Positions 1 to 19,400 of a stretch of 27,932 nucleotides of DNA are shown in pieces (the stretch's first letter is position 1; every line of letters begins with the position of its first letter). The stretch comes from a virus. Its lineage: Duplodnaviria > Caudoviricetes. Made by a program: the position numbers and the translations under genes. The notes under the pieces were generated by a model that saw only the letters and a program-made list of their open reading frames with translations, was not told where the DNA came from and did not search any database. The stretch covers positions 1 through 27,932 of the IMG/VR virus record IMGVR_UViG_3300027886_000013; one strand, written 5' to 3'.

Positions 1-491
1 CTTGCGCTGCACTGCATTATACTGCTTTGCTGTGCGCTAATGTCTTGGTACTTCACTCTGCTTTGCCTTGCTCTGCGGTGCGGTGCTCTGCGCTGCGTTA
101 CATTGCAGTGCTCTACGCTAATGTCTGGTACTTCACTTTACTCTGCACTACTCTGCATTGCTTTGCGCTGCCCTGCGCTGCGGTGCCATGCCGTGCTTTG
201 CAATACTCTGTAATGCGCTGCTTTGCATTGCTGTGCGCTACTGTGCTCTGCAATGCGCTGCGCTAATGCTCAGTATTCACTTTGCTCTGCGCTGCGATGC
301 TTTGCATTGCCTTGCATTGTGCTGCGATGCGCTGCCGTGCGTTGCGCTAATGTCTTAGTACTTCACTCTGCTTTGCTCTGCTTTGCATTGCTCTGCTCTG
401 CTCTGCTATGCAATGCTTTGCTTTGCAGTGCTCTGCTCTGCAAAGCTTTGCGCTGCGATGCAGTGCTCTGCGTTACTCTGCGCTGCTCTGA
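1..491 (-). ncRNA. Putative guide-RNA array: phased (GCA-NN)n pentamer units separated by a conserved 19-21-nt delimiter; truncated at window start
   Basis: Plus strand reads TGC-nn in unbroken 5-nt phase (rare TAC/TGT/TAT/AGC variants). Delimiter ctaatgtcttRgtacttcact and variants lie at 37-57, 118-137, 263-281 and 347-367; the segments between them are 60, 125 and 65 nt, all multiples of 5. It begins ~17 nt after the stop of the Cas7-like gene. Transcription and strand are inferred from that gene. Confidence 0.8.
37..367 (-). repeat. Four copies of the array delimiter repeat (RNA sense ~AGUGAAGUACYAAGACAUUAG)
   Basis: 37-57 ctaatgtcttggtacttcact; 118-137 ctaatgtctggtacttcact; 263-281 ctaatgctcagtattcact; 347-367 ctaatgtcttagtacttcact. 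Confidence 0.9.
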
Positions 492-508
492 TTTTCAATA
501 ACGCATTA

Positions 509-1105
509 TCAAACAACAACTTGCGTAATTTTTATACTATCCTCATCGATAATAAAGGTCCCATAGTCGCCTTTGCGAGCTGGCCGCCATGTGCCAAGCC
601 CTTTGAAAGAACCACCCGACTGAAGATACTTCGCGACTCGCTCAGGATCAATAATCTCATCGGTGATAATCAATCGGCAAGGGATTTGCCACTCGTGGAT
701 AATTGGAAAATGACGCCACACACGCTTGCCGCCGCCGCTTTTCCCATCAGCCGGGACAAATTTACTTAGACGCTCGACATCCTCTGACTTAATCGGAGAG
801 CCATCACCGTCAAGAACCGGGAATTCAACCGCATCAGCCCGCAACCCCGCCTGAAATTTCCCCGAGTACGTTTTTTGGCCCTGACCTTTTATTCGTTCAG
901 AAAGGTAGCTCGCTGCATCCAGAACACAGGACTTAATGGCATAGCCACTCATCACTACTTCATTGTTCTTATTGAGATTAAGACGCTCACGCCAAGTCCT
1001 AAGCTCAAATTCATCGTCAAGTTCATTACCTTCTTTCATGGACTTTTTCACGGCCCCGAACAACAGGGGCGCCGTACCTACTAGCGTTGCGCTAAACCGA
1101 TACAT
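509..1105 (-). CDS. Stand-alone Cas7-like / RAMP-superfamily RNA-binding protein (198 aa)
   Basis: N-terminal beta strand with 'TLVGTAPLLF', 'VVMSGYAIKSCVLDAA' helix, thumb-like 'VPADGKSGGGKRVWRHFPII.EW', and C-terminal glycine-rich loop 'GGSFKGLGTWRPARKGDYGTF' typical of RAMP/Cas7 proteins. Strong SD (AAGGAGG); no other cas genes in the window. Confidence 0.8.
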   Translation of the reverse strand: MYRFSATLVGTAPLLFGAVKKSMKEGNELDDEFELRTWRERLNLNKNNEVVMSGYAIKSCVLDAASYLSERIKGQGQKTYSGKFQAGLRADAVEFPVLDGDGSPIKSEDVERLSKFVPADGKSGGGKRVWRHFPIIHEWQIPCRLIITDEIIDPERVAKYLQSGGSFKGLGTWRPARKGDYGTFIIDEDSIKITQVVV

Positions 1106-1106
1106 C

Positions 1107-1340
1107 CTATGCCTCCTTGCTTAGTAGCTCCCCAACACCCTTCCGAAAGTTCTCATCAGTAGAATCTGACAGAATGGTTTTGGCCATATCCTCAACTGCC
1201 AGATGCATTACTTTAGTTTTAGTAATGTCCATATACTCGCTTAGCAATGAAACTATATCATCAGTTAATGTCCATACCGATGTCTGGCGACGTCCTTTTC
1301 TAGCCGCACGCTTAACAGAATGCGTGAATTTCTCACTCAT
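1107..1340 (-). CDS. Small DNA-binding protein, ribbon-helix-helix-like; first gene of the Cas7-like operon
   Basis: Basic N-terminus, short strand 'RQTSVW', then helices 'TDDIVSLLSEYM' and 'TKTKVMHLAVEDMA'. Its stop is 1 nt from the Cas7-like start; paralog at 2019-2192. Confidence 0.6.
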   Translation of the reverse strand: MSEKFTHSVKRAARKGRRQTSVWTLTDDIVSLLSEYMDITKTKVMHLAVEDMAKTILSDSTDENFRKGVGELLSKEA

Positions 1341-1387
1341 TTCTTGCTCTTGTCCGTTGATATGTTACTTAATTAATAACTGTAATC

Positions 1388-1416
1388 ATTATACAATAAG
1401 CCTGATTGGAATTCAA
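1388..1416 (-). promoter_or_regulatory. Sigma70-type promoter of the RHH / Cas7-like / array operon
   Basis: Minus strand TTGAAT-17 nt-TATAAT, ~48 nt upstream of the 1340 start. Confidence 0.75.
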
Positions 1417-1438: not shown

Positions 1439-1469
1439 AAAAAAAATGAGGAACTATCAAGCTCCTCAT
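1439..1469 (-). terminator. Intrinsic terminator insulating the Cas7-like operon from upstream genes
   Basis: Minus strand ATGAGGAGC-TTGATA-GTTCCTCAT followed by a T run. Confidence 0.75.
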
Positions 1470-1615
1470 CTGTGATTATGACTCATCTTTCTAATCAGGA
1501 GTGCAGCAATAGGCATCCCTGTCGCCGACCTAATTATTGCAGAACCATCGACTCCACCACCGAAGAAGTCTCGGTAAAGATCGATGGAGCCAATTTTACC
1601 CGCTAGGACCTACTT

Positions 1616-2018: not shown

Positions 2019-2192
2019 TTATCCATCCTCATGCTCGGGGAAACACCGTTTCGTCATCTCGACGACGGCCAGATGCACAACCTCGACCTTAGACCTGCCC
2101 AAATGTTCACTCAGCTTTCTGAGCATATCATCGGTAGTTACCCATATGGCTAACTGCCTTCTCGACTTATCCACCTGCCATCCTTTTTCCAT
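2019..2192 (-). CDS. Small RHH-like DNA-binding protein (57 aa), paralog of 1107-1340
   Basis: Start moved to the ATG at 2192 (GGAGG SD). RRQLAIWVTTDDMLRKLSEHLGRSKVEVVHLAVVEMTK aligns without gaps to RRQTSVWTLTDDIVSLLSEYMDITKTKVMHLAVEDMAK. Confidence 0.7.
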   Translation of the reverse strand: MEKGWQVDKSRRQLAIWVTTDDMLRKLSEHLGRSKVEVVHLAVVEMTKRCFPEHEDG

Positions 2193-2720: not shown

Positions 2721-4766
2721 CTAGAACGGCACCTTGTCGCTATCGTCGGGCCCAGGTCTCACCCAATAACTTTTACCATCGCTCTTCTTGCGGTACCAAC
2801 CGTTGGCCCTAAGGGCATCGGTCACCTGCATTTGCAGGCTTTTGTCTTTCCACTGGTCTTTCGACTTGAACTCAAAGTAGTAAGTACAGATCTCATCCCA
2901 GGTCGTTTTATCCAAATATTTATGGATACCTTTGCCGTTGAGGAAATCTTTCAGGCTATCTTCAAACACATTCTCGACCCTACGCGTTTCCCGTTGCTCT
3001 TTAATCGTGGACTGCAGGCCATCTGGCTCTTCCCACCAGTGAGCCGACGGGTGTTCGAGTAACCATTCCTTCGCCTCGGCGAAAAGTTGCTCCCGCTCGT
3101 GTTTGATGGCATCCAGGTCGAAGCTGCCCGTGTTGATGGGCAGGAATCGGGTATTCCCAGTGAGCCCTCGCAGATAGTCGGAGTCATTCGTCGTCCCAAT
3201 AAAAACCGTCCGTCTTGGGTAATCGACACTGTGGTTGGAATATTTAGGGACATAATGATCAGATGTATTGGTCAAGAACGCTTTGAGCCTAGATTCACTC
3301 GACTTATAAAGCGTATCGAGCTCTTCTAGCTCCGCAATCCAGTAGCCATGGATCGACATGTGAGCCTCTTTGCTTTCAAGGCTTATCTTCAAGGTTGTTG
3401 CCCACTCACCGCCAAGTAAAGCAATGGCTGTACTTTTGCCTTGGTTCTCCTCCCCGTTCCAAATCGGCACCAGCCTAGCAATGCAGCCGGGGTGAAATGC
3501 GCGGTTCATCATTTGCAAGAGGGTTACCTTGCCAACCCACCTTGAATAATCTGAATCCTCGGCCCCGCACATGTCGATCATCCAAGTTTCGATTCTTGGG
3601 GCCCCATCCCACTCGGGCAAGGTACCTAGCCACTCAATAAGAGCGTCGTATTTATCCTTGATCGCGGTCGCTTTGATGGCATCGGATAGAAGTTGCCTAC
3701 GGTTACCGCCAAAGCGGTAATGTGACCCTAGCCACTCGGAGATGCGATATTCAGTCTCGTCATTTACTGGCTTGCCGTCGAGTGTCGCCAGGTTGCGAAA
3801 TGCGTCAAAGCGTATACGCCCTTGCCATTCCTGATGATGTTCCAAGATCATGCTCATGTTGTAGAAACACTCCAGTACCTTTATCCCCTTGGCATCCAGT
3901 TGCAGCATCGAAGCCAGATCAGCATCCGGCATATGCCCATTCATACTGATATCCGCTGGCGCCCGTTCCGCCTTTTCTTTCTTCGGAAGATACGGCTCAA
4001 TAGCAGCCTCGATGTCTTTCATCATCTTAGACGACATATATGGCTGAGAAGCCACCATGATGCGGAGCTCTGGGTAACGCCAGCATCTACCCAGGAATGG
4101 GAATAAGCCCGTCCTATGAGCATCCTGGAGCCAATTAGAGGTATTCAGGCATTCGGTGAGTATATGCACGAGTACCTCACTCTCATTACCAGACCCCTGC
4201 ATCCTATCCACTCGTTGCATCCAAGTTTGGACGAGGTGAGTCTCGATAATGTGGGTGAGCTGGGATTGTCTCGGCCTGGCATCTGCATCCGTCCCAAACT
4301 TCTCCCCAGTAATGGGGATCATATAGTCCTGTGTCCATACCTCGATATCGCCGGACTTGATATTGGCCTCACCTTTTGACATGAGAATTAAATGTAGGCC
4401 GTTGTCATCATCAATTTCAGTATAGGTATCGAGAAGTGCAACGATCTCTCCTGGCAGGATTTTGATTTTCCGGGTTCCTTCATCAAAACAATTGATGAGG
4501 TGTACCACTGCAAAGAGATCTTTATCTGTTAGTAGAAAGCCGAGTCCAAACCCGTCATCAAGGCATCGCTGGTACGTTTCAGTCAGACTTCCCGGTTGGG
4601 AAATAGGAGTGTGGCATTGTTCACCATGTTCATTAGAGGTATAGACCCAGGACACCCACTGTGGGAAGCTAGATAAAGCTTTCGGGATGTTGTGAAAAAT
4701 AGGGAATGCTGGTGATAATTCCGTAGTATCTGATTGACTTTCGTTACCGGGAGTGATATCATTCAT
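2721..4766 (-). CDS. Primase-like / VapE (VirE)-family helicase fusion, phage replication protein
   Basis: N-terminal PrimPol-like motifs (IPKAL..FPQWVSW, GLGFLL, LDTYTEI..GLH, IEVW...ITG). C-terminal Walker A GEENQGKST, Walker B region WIAELEEL and FIGTTN...GNTRF. Start moved to the ATG at 4766 (GGAGG SD). Confidence 0.85.
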   Translation of the reverse strand: MNDITPGNESQSDTTELSPAFPIFHNIPKALSSFPQWVSWVYTSNEHGEQCHTPISQPGSLTETYQRCLDDGFGLGFLLTDKDLFAVVHLINCFDEGTRKIKILPGEIVALLDTYTEIDDDNGLHLILMSKGEANIKSGDIEVWTQDYMIPITGEKFGTDADARPRQSQLTHIIETHLVQTWMQRVDRMQGSGNESEVLVHILTECLNTSNWLQDAHRTGLFPFLGRCWRYPELRIMVASQPYMSSKMMKDIEAAIEPYLPKKEKAERAPADISMNGHMPDADLASMLQLDAKGIKVLECFYNMSMILEHHQEWQGRIRFDAFRNLATLDGKPVNDETEYRISEWLGSHYRFGGNRRQLLSDAIKATAIKDKYDALIEWLGTLPEWDGAPRIETWMIDMCGAEDSDYSRWVGKVTLLQMMNRAFHPGCIARLVPIWNGEENQGKSTAIALLGGEWATTLKISLESKEAHMSIHGYWIAELEELDTLYKSSESRLKAFLTNTSDHYVPKYSNHSVDYPRRTVFIGTTNDSDYLRGLTGNTRFLPINTGSFDLDAIKHEREQLFAEAKEWLLEHPSAHWWEEPDGLQSTIKEQRETRRVENVFEDSLKDFLNGKGIHKYLDKTTWDEICTYYFEFKSKDQWKDKSLQMQVTDALRANGWYRKKSDGKSYWVRPGPDDSDKVPF

Positions 4767-5629: not shown

Positions 5630-5753
5630 AAATCACTGTTTTGCATGTTTCCCTTACCTCCCCCTCATGATCAAAATTGCTTTACCCAGATCTGAGTGGT
5701 ATCCTCTGCCCACCTGCGAACCTCAATTTATCAAACTCACCAGCTCATGTCAA

Positions 5754-15220: not shown

Positions 15221-15250
15221 TTGACTTTTATTTGTCGTTTGGTATATATT
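15221..15250 (+). promoter_or_regulatory. Candidate promoter of the discoidin moron
   Basis: TTGACT followed 18 nt later by TATATT, with an AT-rich upstream element. Confidence 0.5.
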
Positions 15251-15368
15251 GTCATCTAGAGAGAGGTTAAAGGTTCCGCAGTTTTCATTTGCAACTTCTA
15301 GGCCGCCGATGTATGGTATTCTAGCCGATTGCAGCTTTTGGCAACAAGCACTGACTAAGGAGAGAGTT

Positions 15369-16325
15369 ATGTCTATTTTTATCGTATTTGTAATGCTACT
15401 ATGGTCTGGAGTCGGTTGGGCATCGTCCCCAGAGATGAGAGTTACGGCAAGTAGTTACGAGAAAGCGAACGAACCGGGCAATGCAATCGATAATGATCCT
15501 TCCACGCACTGGACATGTCGCGGGGGATGCTGGATTGAGATAGATAGAGGCTATGTGGGTACTGATGTCACGCATTTCTTTATTGCATGGTTGAACGAAA
15601 AACGAGAAAACTTCTTTGATATTGCTGTCTCGGTGGATAGGGTTAACTGGATGACTGTATTTAGTGGAAGTAATCTCAGTGAAAATACGGGAACAGAAAC
15701 AGGTGAGTATGAGTTTGATCCTGATCTTACAGGCACTGAGCACGGCATGGTCTCCGCACGTTACATCCGCGTCATTGGCCATGGCAATAATGTCAGCAAC
15801 CACAACTCGATAGCCGAGCTTAGCATTTGGACATTCGACCAAAATGAAGAGGAATTCCTCGAGCATGAGGTTGCCTCGGCCACTGCCAGTGCTAGTAATA
15901 AAACGAATACGCCCGAACGTGCCGTAGACGGTAATCTGGCTACCCACTGGACTGCTGACAACGGAGAATCGCTACAGCTCGACCTTGGCTATGTGGATAC
16001 CGTAGAGAACGTGAAGATTGCCTGGCTCAGCGGCAACAAGCGCAAGGCAGACTTCGACATTGAGGTATCAGTGGATGGCATCAGCTGGGAGCTGGCCTTT
16101 TCAGGAACGAGCACTGGCGCCAGCCTGAAGCTGGAGAATAATTTCTTCGGGCAAGAGTACTGTGCCCGCTACGTGCGGATTACTGGCCTCGGCAATGACC
16201 ATCCGACTCAGGGAAATAAAAACTCAATTACCGAAGTCGAAATCTGGGGATGGAGTCGATATTTTGATCTCTCATGTGAAGAGGAAGTCGGTGGCGAGAT
16301 TGATGCAGTTGCCGGTCGGATGTAA
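15369..16325 (+). CDS. Secreted protein with two discoidin (F5/8 type C, CBM32-like) domains; moron-like
   Basis: Signal peptide MSIFIVFVMLLWSGVGWA; two repeats of TAS...P.[NR]A.D....THW...[IL].[IL]D.G....IAWL...R...FDI.VSVD...W...FSG...ARY[IV]R[VI].G.GN...NSI.E. Start moved to the ATG at 15369 (AAGGAG SD). Confidence 0.85.
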   Translation: MSIFIVFVMLLWSGVGWASSPEMRVTASSYEKANEPGNAIDNDPSTHWTCRGGCWIEIDRGYVGTDVTHFFIAWLNEKRENFFDIAVSVDRVNWMTVFSGSNLSENTGTETGEYEFDPDLTGTEHGMVSARYIRVIGHGNNVSNHNSIAELSIWTFDQNEEEFLEHEVASATASASNKTNTPERAVDGNLATHWTADNGESLQLDLGYVDTVENVKIAWLSGNKRKADFDIEVSVDGISWELAFSGTSTGASLKLENNFFGQEYCARYVRITGLGNDHPTQGNKNSITEVEIWGWSRYFDLSCEEEVGGEIDAVAGRM

Positions 16326-16421: not shown

Positions 16422-19400
16422 TTATGCCTTCATTTCATGCATAACCCTAGTTAATACCTTCCGCATTTCTACAAACTCTGCCGTCTGTGACCTTGCAATA
16501 CGGATCATCTCGTTAATGCCAAGTGCGGTAGTCGAATTGTTGGAGCTGATCTGCCGTAGGTAGTCCACTGAACTCCTGCCAAGCTGGACCTGTTCGAGCT
16601 GCCTTGTTTCCTGCCTAACCAGATTGGCCCGCTCCAGCTCAATCCTCCGAGCCTCCCGGTCCCGCATATTGGTCAGCACCGTTGCGACCTCATTCCGTGC
16701 GTCCATAGACCCGCCAGTGCCACCCCTGATCTGCTGGGCGATATCGGCAAACTGTCTCCCGGCTTGCAGCGCTTCACTTATATCGCCACCTCTCACGGCC
16801 TCCATAAACTGCGTCCTGGCCTCATCAAGCCGCTGTTGAGCCGGCAGGACATCAGACAACCTGGACTGCCCCAGATAGTCATCAACCTGCTTAAGGGCGT
16901 CGCGTCTTGACTGGAATGATTCATCGATCGCAGTAATTGCATCCTGGCGAATGATATTCGCTTGTGCTTTAAATGAGTCTGTTAGGTCCTCTGTGGATAG
17001 GCCCAAAATCTCGGCGGATTGGATAAGCCCAGCGACTTGCTCAGTTAGTGCCTGCATCCTCTGGATCGTTTCACTTCTCTCTGGTAACCCCGCTTCGATG
17101 AATGACTTGAAGGCATCACCAATCCCCTTCATATTAGAACCACCGCCGCCGCTGATCGCCTCTAGAGCCCGGTCGACCTGTGCGGTCGCGACTGCAAGTC
17201 TTTTAAATTGATCGATCCGGCTCTGAGAGACTAAGCCTTTATCGGCTAATTCTTGGAATTCTCGCACCTGCTCATTGATCTGTATCATGGTCGCCAAGGC
17301 CGGGTTCACAAATTGTAAGAGCGACTGACCAAATTGTATTTGCTGCTCCCGCTTTTCTTCAGCCTCTTGGCGCCTGCGCTCTAAGTCCTCCTTCTTGACT
17401 TTATCCATCGCCAACTTCGCAAATTGGTCAACCAGGCCTTTGGGAATTAGGCCCTCCTTTGACTGCTGCCGGAAATCAGCAACCTGCTGATTAACATCGT
17501 GCATAGCAGCCCCGAGCGGATTCGTAAAATCGAGAATCAGGCCCTGGATATTGGCCTTTGCATCGGCAGCCCGCTGCCTCTTTTGCTCTGCATCGGCTTT
17601 CCGCTGCTCCGCCTGGCGCTGTGCATCGGCCCTCCCCTGGGACGCGCTGCTACTGCTACCGCCACTGCTGCCACCACGGCTACTGCTACCACCACGATTA
17701 CTGCCGCCACCACTGCTGCCACTACGGTTGCTGCCACCATCAGAGCGCTGTGGTGTGCTCTGTCGCGCTGGACGCGGTGTGCCCCCTCTGAGTAGTCCAG
17801 TCAGATCCGGTACACGGAGCGTCACTTGCCTCGCCTGTTGCGCTGGACGCGGTGTGCCCCCTCTAAGTAGTCCAGCCAGATCTGGTGCACGGAGCGTCGG
17901 TACAACACGGATCGTTGGTTGCGGCGGTCTCAACGCCGTCGCAGTCACTCGCCCCCGTGTCACCGCACTCCCACCTGCCCCGCCACCGCCATATGCCCCA
18001 CCCACACGGGTAGCAGCACTGCTGCTACTATATCCAAGCCCCCCTGTCGGCGTCTGTCGCGCTCCTGCCGCCGACTGTCGCCCCCCTGTCGGCGTCTGTC
18101 GCGATCCTGTCGCAGGGGCTCTCGGGATCGATGGACGCTGTTGTGCCGCATTCACAAGACTAGCGGCAGCTGCATTTGCCGCTCCCGTTATGCCACTTAG
18201 TATACGAACGACATTGCTTGCAGCGTCCCCGAATGCGCCCGAAATGACACCTGCTGCGTCCTGGGCACCGCTTATGATGGTGCTGTATGTGCTCCCGGCA
18301 CCGAGTACGATGGCCTCGTTTGCCTCCTGGTTCCCGCTTACGATGGCCTCGGTTGTCTGCTCGGCACCTCTTGTGGTAGCGTCGTTTATTTGGTTGTTAG
18401 CATCTGTATTGGTAGCTACACGATCGTCTGCAAGATCTCTTTCTAAGTCTGCCCGCTCAAGTGCATGCTTTCTGTCCAGCTGCTCAAGATCGGCTCCGAT
18501 CGCGATGGCTTGATCCCTTTCCCGCTTCTGTCTCCGTTCAAGGTCGTCCCATCGTTGCGCGATTGGATCGGTAAGACCTAGAATGTCATTGGCGATGGAC
18601 TCGTTAAAGTCTGCTAGTGCATCTGCGGCCGCTTTTGCACGCGCGTCCTCTGCGTCCTGTGCCGCTTTAGTAGCCTCCCTATACCACTCATCCACTAGCT
18701 CCTGAGGGATTAAACCTTCTGCAGCCTGGGCCTTGAAAATGATGAGTTGTTGATATATCGAGTGCATAGCGGCCGCGAATGGGTCCGTCATCCCCAATAT
18801 CAGGCCAACAATGTTCCCGCGGGCTGCATCTGACTGCATCTGGATTTCTTCGTTGACTCGCTTCTCAAGCTCGACTCTCTCTGCGGCATTGAGTTTTTCA
18901 ACCTCTACGAGATCTGCCCCTGCATCGATGGCATTCTGATACCGCTCTGCTTGCATGGCTTCTAATGCGTCGAACTCTGCGGCAACGGGATCTGTAAGGG
19001 CTAGGAGGCTATTGGCGATACCCTCATTAAAATCCGTTGTGACCTGTGCAAGCAGCCTGTTTTGCTCTGCTACGATCTCGTCAATAGGAAGGCCCAGAGT
19101 AGTAGCGCGATCAGCCAGTGCTTGGAATTGATCGTTAATTGCGTTGATCGCAGCTGCGGTATCAGAGAGTGGCCCTATCTTGAAGTCCTCAATCATCCGC
19201 AGAATTTCTAGTGCTTCCTCTGCCCGCTGCACGATAGCCTGGATATTTCCGGCATCAGCACTAAACTGCTCGCCTACGATATTGGTTGCAGTCGCCTCGT
19301 CTGTGAGTGCAGTGAGTGCATGGTGAAGGCGGAGTTGGATGGCTTTGGCAATAGCATCGTCCACACCTTCAGCCTGCACCATAGAACCCGCGGGTACTGC

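Follow-up and report, generated by a model that had tools for sequence, protein, structure and literature searches.

Type II VIPR systems, described for Escherichia phage SUSP1 and a Pseudomonas fulva prophage, are the closest described relatives of the locus analysed here (10.64898/2026.04.26.720920, 10.64898/2026.04.26.720927; PDB 36pp). According to the accessible text of these two reports, the guides of canonical type II systems consist of 9-16 repeats followed by a structured 3' tail, and their GGY triplet is contacted by residues H17, R138 and D177. In SUSP1, a third-base pocket (E71, M72, C173, residue 175 and R179) excludes purines, and alanine mutants of D177, R138, K82 and K33 abolish silencing (10.64898/2026.04.26.720927); purine exclusion by such a pocket is how the SUSP1 and P. 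fulva structures account for GGY, and GGY-to-GGA is among the guide changes tested on silencing (10.64898/2026.04.26.720920, 10.64898/2026.04.26.720927). Departures from GGY have also been published, namely NNNGG, YNNNG and NNNNG repeats and staggered arrays (10.64898/2026.04.26.720920), as well as, in the accessible part of a further report, 21 clusters with non-GGY triplets, e.g., GAC, CAC, WGT and TGH (10.64898/2026.10.21.760802). The triplet GCA has no occurrence in the searched text of 10.64898/2026.10.21.760802, 10.64898/2026.10.15.759431 and the supplement of 10.64898/2026.04.26.720920, while the logos (Fig. S10A, Fig. S17) may include it. The VIPR system and several non-GGY triplets are known already, and a new class of system is not established here.

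Herein, we analyse a stretch of 27,932 nucleotides from a soil phage (hereafter, the window). The preliminary description of this DNA had mentioned that a similar architecture was reported in phages as VIPR and had proposed a variant with a different constant motif; both statements proved right, since VIPR has been published (10.64898/2026.04.26.720920) and GCA, as opposed to GGY, constitutes 153 of the 174 units of the full array. The mechanism put forward there is the published one for GGY systems. The locus belongs to VIPR, as it combines a Vipr-related RAMP homolog, pentamers of the 3+2 type, a minimal vap locus and a viral location; it is not a canonical type II system, lacking the GGY triplet with its contacts and the 9-16 repeats with structured tails. 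We consider it almost certain that the locus represents a real and complete VIPR system, composed of vipr, the pentamer array and a Vap1-family gene.

Organization of the locus and its array

Two ORFs on the minus strand, at 1107-1340 (77 aa) and 509-1105 (198 aa, vipr), form the gene pair noted in the preliminary description, and the first pentamer begins at 491, 17 nt past the vipr stop codon, just as noted there. The viral location of the locus follows from the virus record and from surrounding phage genes, which by Pfam include a P22-type coat, a tape measure, a VapE-like and an HTH-repressor gene. A sigma70-like promoter, TTGAAT-17-TATAAT (1388-1416, minus strand), is a candidate operon start; it had been called near-consensus, and it does match at 10 of 12 positions, but over the 2.9 kb scanned chance alone would yield 3.1 sites with at least 9/12 matches. 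Just before it, a terminator-like hairpin with a T run (1444-1471, minus strand; 3635-3662 in the metagenome contig L204), recognized by consensus match only, would close the upstream gene. L204, a longer contig of the same phage at this locus, encodes the same Vipr protein, is identical to the window over positions 1-2415, and adds 92 pentamers, a hairpin and a partner gene beyond window position 1, so the array does not end at that position, as had first appeared. A "duplicated segment" beyond position 1 was rejected as a contig misplacement.

Within the window, tract 1 (367-491; 25 GCA-NN units, a candidate guide) is followed on the minus strand by linker 1 (346-366; 21 nt), tract 2 (281-345; 13 units), linker 2 (262-280; 19 nt), tract 3 (137-261; 25 units), linker 3 (117-136; 20 nt), tract 4 (57-116; 12 units), linker 4 (36-56; 21 nt) and the first 7 of the 25 units of tract 5 (1-35), which is cut at the window edge. 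Tracts 5-9 continue in L204 up to position 5650, and the full array comprises 174 pentamers in nine tracts (25, 13, 25, 12, 25, 19, 15, 21 and 19 units, in order) over 1,036 nt, with eight similar linkers of 19-23 nt. The lag-5 identity of positions 1-492 is 0.598 vs. 0.279 in 1000 shuffles (z 16.5), and the highest 200-bp windows outside the array only reach 0.33. Thus, the 5-nt period claimed for the array is confirmed, while its phasing is not strict as had been stated, because the tracts are separated by 19-21-nt linkers, which displace the phase by at most 1 nt. The 82 pentamers inside the window (GCA 70, GTA 7, ACA 2 and three singletons) have entropies of 0.32/0.46/0.10 bits at the fixed and 1.81/1.81 bits at the variable positions; across the full array the values by position are 0.29/0.43/0.05/1.86/1.77 bits. 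The most fixed base is the third, A in 173/174 units, and the variants of the triplet alternate between G and A at position 1 and between C and T at position 2. NN entropy amounts to 3.51 bits, and all 16 pairs occur.

In type II systems, separate RNAs of ~100 nt carry structured tails, whereas here one 1-kb run contains short unfolded linkers and a single terminal hairpin, and six of the nine tracts have 19-25 units rather than 9-16. Linker 1, which is conserved among the linkers, resembles about four degenerate pentamers and has no stable fold; for three linkers that were folded the z-scores were +0.25 to +0.54, and only the terminal 18-bp hairpin (L204 5649-5688) folds (z -8.4). The 5' arm of this hairpin resembles array units. 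An Rfam search returned a chance match only. Since similar 21-nt linkers are present in another locus with a GAC array (L022), and 25 units are reached by 21 of 348 family tracts, this arrangement is uncommon without being unique. Tracts 3 and 6 have a run of six NN in common, a length reached in 1.3% of 300 shuffles.

Contigs from runs X1 and X3, which are possibly the source samples, show 0 differences from L204 across the array. A relative that is ~90% identical, found in runs X4 and X5 of one study, carries vipr, array, hairpin and partner gene on one contig. Its array is ~510 nt long, its indels of 5 and 35 nt correspond to whole pentamers, and of the five array differences listed four fall at NN positions and one changes GTA to GCA. 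In the same relative the terminal hairpin is reversed (2 differences/40 nt), as though the loop had been inverted within its two arms.

The Cas7-like protein had been described as "solo"; this does not hold, since a gene of 173 aa (L204 5712-6233), co-directional with vipr, follows the array. The profile of a partner-gene family, seeded from 11 neighbours that the 173-aa family matched weakly, recognizes this ORF with E 6.8e-10. Of 141 homolog loci, 120 have a member of that family, in each case on the strand of vipr; the family includes the gene after vipr of Citrobacter phage Mijalis. From the gene order in the SUSP1 papers, we infer that the partner family is Vap1. Pairwise comparison of the small 173-aa alignment with the Mijalis partner gave no link, and the family profile alone connected them; the structural model of the 173-aa protein was poor (pLDDT 43), and with it Foldseek returned no match. 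By contrast with the "solo" label, the reported absence of cas genes and CRISPR stands: a Pfam scan of 34 window ORFs and 3 L204 ORFs gave no Cas match, and a repeat-spacer array, like the other class 1 CRISPR-Cas features (cas1/2, cas5/6, large subunit), is absent within the window and L204, which represent an incomplete phage genome.

The 77-aa gene shows Atlas feature matches (0.91) to RHH_1 clusters, which serve as a lead only, and no Pfam match. The RHH-like gene assigned earlier to the unit thus exists as a minus-strand ORF, but it was not found beside the 141 homolog loci examined, and for this reason it is probably not a core part of VIPR; likely, it is a local regulator. A 57-aa paralog (window 2019-2192, minus strand; 42% over 48 aa) lies 700 nt upstream. 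Next to this paralog, and following the VapE-like gene, lie short repeats of the GTGACA type (2350-2551), possibly an origin region. Elsewhere in the window, a 358-aa gene with two F5/8 type C (discoidin) domains (15249-16325, plus strand) lies antisense within the tail region, and Gly/Ser- and Arg-rich tandem repeats, including a 75-nt duplication, occupy 17650-18113 inside the 1,819-aa tape-measure gene.

The Vipr protein and the GCA triplet

The RAMP/Cas7 hallmarks attributed to the 198-aa protein were borne out by its AlphaFold2 model. A protein search gave 98 homologs including the query, 89 of which were aligned for the model; it has a pLDDT of 95.4 and a RAMP/Cas7 fold, superposes on Csm3 with a VIA Z of 12.0 (rmsd 3.6, 159 residues aligned) and matches Cas7 chains in Foldseek with E 1e-7. 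Against PDB sequences, the sole significant match of the family profile is SUSP1 Vipr (36pp_D; E 1.1e-10), the next having E 0.58, and profile alignment to Mijalis Vipr reached 98% probability. The best genome-borne relative is ~40% identical. As the preliminary description had led one to expect, pentamer (lag-5) tracts adjoin vipr homologs in 74 of 80 viral loci. With the Cas7/Csm3 proteins of class 1 CRISPR-Cas (types III and VII) the RAMP fold is common, at an identity of only ~10-15%; unlike those systems, the window has neither a repeat-spacer array nor other cas genes. The locus is similar to type II of SUSP1 and P. fulva in its homologous RAMP protein of ~200 aa with thumb and G-loop, its Vap1-family partner, its phage-borne location and its 3+2 pentamer guides, with no nuclease or other cas gene seen.

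It differs from SUSP1 in the residues that contact G1 and G2 and in a shorter alpha-bundle region. Residues were compared on a ruler of Mijalis Vipr numbering, which matches the residues named for SUSP1 except 175. W173 and R174 of the window protein correspond to SUSP1 W178 and R179, while D177 is replaced by T172, R138 by F133 and K82 by S66, and K33 has no aligned counterpart; the H17 position is Gly by ungapped reading and gapped in hhalign. In 84% of the family, Lys occupies the position aligned to K82. The lysine lost at S66 may, on the aligned sequences, be made up for by basic residues gained close by (R/K71). As D177, R138 and K82, which SUSP1 needs, are changed and K33 is without a partner, these data argue against a simple transfer of the SUSP1 mechanism.

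The use of GCA places an A where SUSP1 excludes purines. In this respect the locus resembles non-canonical VIPR arrays, in which a non-GGY triplet stands beside a Vipr fold; TGH and NNNGG arrays, as far as the accessible text of their reports describes them, permit a third-base purine without fixing it, whereas here A is fixed. Of the 111 family loci for which a triplet was called and the G-loop was covered, we scored 109, leaving out L236, whose tracts are mostly GAY, and L206, whose tracts of 6-7 units read CGA; the scored triplets end in C (102) or T (7). The short CGA-NN tracts of L206 (111-145 and 812-841) stand beside a 40%-identical Vipr and are maybe a second purine-ending triplet. Triplets of the nearest family members found include GGC, CGC, GAC, CTC, GTC and GTT, and this one Vipr family uses at least 11 in all, adding AGC, CAC, GGT, AAT and ATT (L001-L080, L207-L261).

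The residues that form the third-base pocket in SUSP1 are altered as well. The family residues P53-P54-M55 are S-G-Y in the clade of the window, and Tyr55 is found in 0/109 family proteins; I168 is replaced by Lys in this clade (K168 in 1/109), and R174 is kept. Y55 and K168 are common to all six nearest relatives (P0002-P0007), the array of one of which was read. On the basis of these sequences, GCA guides are likely read through a remodelled third-base pocket. At G-loop position 172, Arg accompanies a middle G in 68 of 69 family loci and is found in 14 of the 40 remaining ones, counts that are not independent of phylogeny; the residue is Thr here, as expected for a middle C, and Thr or Met in the six nearest proteins. 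Thr172, set against Arg with a middle G, hence speaks for G-C-A being the triplet that is bound. When 400 genomes were searched for further family members to test the GCA code, the centre genome alone came up.

A scan for nine GCA units gave at least 123 loci. Among the matches listed, at least 20 loci carry a Vipr-like ORF, with GCA on the gene's strand in 20/20, and 15 of 16 parsed loci with such an ORF hold true GCA-NN arrays; L178 was rejected, not being a true GCA array. Two cultured marine phages, Listonella phage phiHSIC (L266, AY772740.1, 2085-2430) and Vibrio 1.266.O (L265, MG592631.1, 1348-2346), contain unannotated GCA-NN arrays beside a Vipr-like gene, namely ORF22 and gene 44 (hypothetical), respectively, the tracts lying on the vipr strand as in the window. 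They differ in belonging to a separate Vipr clade, in tracts of 9-12 units, most of them then followed by a folded tail, and in other pocket residues. On a quick tree (75 of 150 rows, with a long-branch warning), the window Vipr falls in a 98-supported clade, apart from the main GCA clade; the other arrays of this clade are NNY except those of L206 and L236, and the GCA label requires at least two changes. Since GCA arrays flank a separate Vipr clade, GCA likely arose at least twice. In other GCA lineages the C varies to A or G. Among further GCA loci, that of L094 (1440-2670) has ~1.2 kb of GCA-NN adjoining a divergent Vipr of 269 aa; a short GGCAG element interrupts these units and displaces their phase by one base. 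L105, L082 and L138 combine GCA-type tracts with a common 197-aa ORF that has a G-loop-like C-terminus and is missed by the Vipr profile, possibly another RAMP lineage.

Taken jointly, these observations allow a reading that we regard as possible but hold only tentatively. The triplet would be a changeable password, reached in its GCA form independently at least two times, with the S53/G54/Y55 and K168 pocket rebuilt for adenine and residue 172 setting the middle base; the system would then be orthogonal to GGY systems and immune to the orphan guides of rivals, and guides of 19-25 units, covering 57-75 bp, would come from one 1-kb precursor. If this reading is true, the triplet specificity of Vipr follows a readable residue code. 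A natural, complete system with a fixed third-base A tests how general purine exclusion is and which residues set the triplet, and the occurrence of Arg172 with a middle G (68/69 loci) is a first testable triplet rule; phiHSIC and Vibrio 1.266.O offer themselves for tests of the GCA code. Should GCA and GGY systems fail to cross-load, a single cell could make use of both side by side as small programmable DNA binders, and a change of triplet would account for the escape of phages from redirection of their Vipr by orphan guides.

Target searches and proposed mechanism

No convincing target was found in the viral and genome collections or in local sequence under the 1-nt skip rule. Self-targets in the window and the downstream part of L204, with skips of 0-3 nt, reached at best 14-16 of 20 bases vs. 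shuffles with a mean of ~15 and a maximum of 17, and 0.8 Mb of collected loci gave no target under the 1-nt rule. The collection scans used this rule only and covered tracts 1, 3, 4, 8 and 9, as well as tract 6 via the run it has in common with tract 3. Exact 10-unit patterns of tracts 3 and 4 gave 0 matches in viral contigs, and genome contigs contained no match (0) to an exact pattern of 11 units from tract 3. Eight-unit seeds matched 19 times for tract 1, 29 for tract 3, 24 for tract 9 and 12 for tract 8, the flanks being at chance (means 0.34, 0.24 and 0.29; tract 8 at best 9/26). The best case, a match of tract 1 to an HTH-repressor-like gene (L268, L271, L275), agreed at 15/34 flank bases and, by hand count, at 24/28 over the first 14 units; it was rejected because it is a post-hoc pick among 15 distinct matches. 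As no target was found, the skip rule and the biological role discussed below are borrowed from SUSP1.

For the base composition of NN, codon positions 1-2 are the best fit, with a log-likelihood of +26.8 relative to bulk, compared with +4.3 for the runner-up; when the final three units per tract are left off, the value is +15.8. Tracts 2 and 9 lean antisense. The coupling within NN pairs agrees equally well with sense codons (z 2.9), bulk DNA (z 3.2) and antisense codons (z 3.5); hence, codon-specific coupling was rejected, and the codon-frame signal is one of base composition. NN composition thus weakly supports a target period of 3 nt.

By analogy with SUSP1, we consider it probable that the locus works as a VIPR system in full, i.e., that the array is co-transcribed with vipr, each protomer grips a GCA and displays the NN, and the filament pairs with dsDNA, skipping every third base, and silences genes of competing phages or satellites. 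The operon would be transcribed from 1416, likely with the array together with vipr; both the promoter and the partner gene are co-directional with vipr. The 1-kb RNA may be cut at the linkers, and Vipr would polymerise with one protomer per pentamer, GCA being flipped out and NN presented in the presumed GCA|NN register. The filament likely pairs with one strand of dsDNA, presumably with a 1-nt skip, and, helped by the partner, would block transcription of the rival mobile element without cleavage.

Two alternatives keep a pyrimidine as the third base of the triplet and put G in its middle. In a shifted register, N-G-C would be bound, as in the YNNNG class named in the discovery paper (10.64898/2026.04.26.720920), with the fixed A in the pairing slot and one variable base read. 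The G/A and C/T variants at the first and second triplet positions resemble those at positions 2-3 of NNY relatives, and GCA, which recurs in separate lineages, is one base's slip from xGC+A. Nevertheless, a middle G predicts R172, as in 68/69 family proteins, and here it is Thr; such a register would also demand targets with a T at each third position along 12-25 units, the base that it leaves unread shows the coupling to its neighbour that natural DNA has, and C varies to A or G in other GCA lineages, so that we find a shifted register quite unlikely. A guide made from the opposite strand, UGC-NN, would need no new pocket, as TGC is the reverse complement of GCA, and TGH/NN arrays are reported in the accessible text of 10.64898/2026.10.21.760802. 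The terminal hairpin, being nearly symmetric and reversed in the ~90% relative, does not fix the direction. However, the middle G of UGC predicts R172 too, no opposite-strand promoter was found downstream of the array, and in other clades the GCA arrays, whether up- or downstream of vipr, lie on the gene's strand in all 20 cases among the matches listed. Moreover, the tails of 13 other GCA loci fold better on the GCA strand in 31 of 42 cases (10 on the other strand, one tie); since these loci are from other clades, both observations bear on the window indirectly. We therefore judge transcription of a UGC guide very unlikely, and return to GCA|NN on the vipr strand as the favoured reading.

The same parts could also serve another output: the skip might have a different length, the target might be RNA, or part of the array might have decayed to self-copied filler. 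Such an output would accord with the failure to find a target in collection scans confined to the 1-nt rule, with the loss of the lysine that clamps the non-target strand (S66) and with the NN run repeated in tracts 3 and 6. On the other hand, neither the triplets nor the two ORFs are disrupted, the content of the array changes from strain to strain by whole pentamers, the R/K71 gains may replace the lysine, and the target is perhaps absent from the collections, in which imperfect sites escape exact-match scans; another output thus appears quite unlikely. It seems barely credible that the array has nothing to do with vipr and is a microsatellite, a product of misassembly or a coding repeat rich in Cys. 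Plus-strand Cys/Ala/Leu-rich ORFs do overlap it, and, among the matches listed, 65 of 75 distinct GCA tracts without a nearby Vipr match have an NN entropy below 2 bits and are simple repeats; against this stand the high NN entropy with all 16 pairs, the unchanged array in the contigs of runs X1 and X3 (possibly the source samples) and the arrays adjoining 74/80 vipr homologs. Silencing by GCA guides presented in the GCA|NN register remains the reading we prefer. As for GCA repeats of another kind, several related viral contigs (L083, L096, L120, L126, L131 and others) contain a pure GCAGA microsatellite with the same flank, which is without variable positions and is no guide array.
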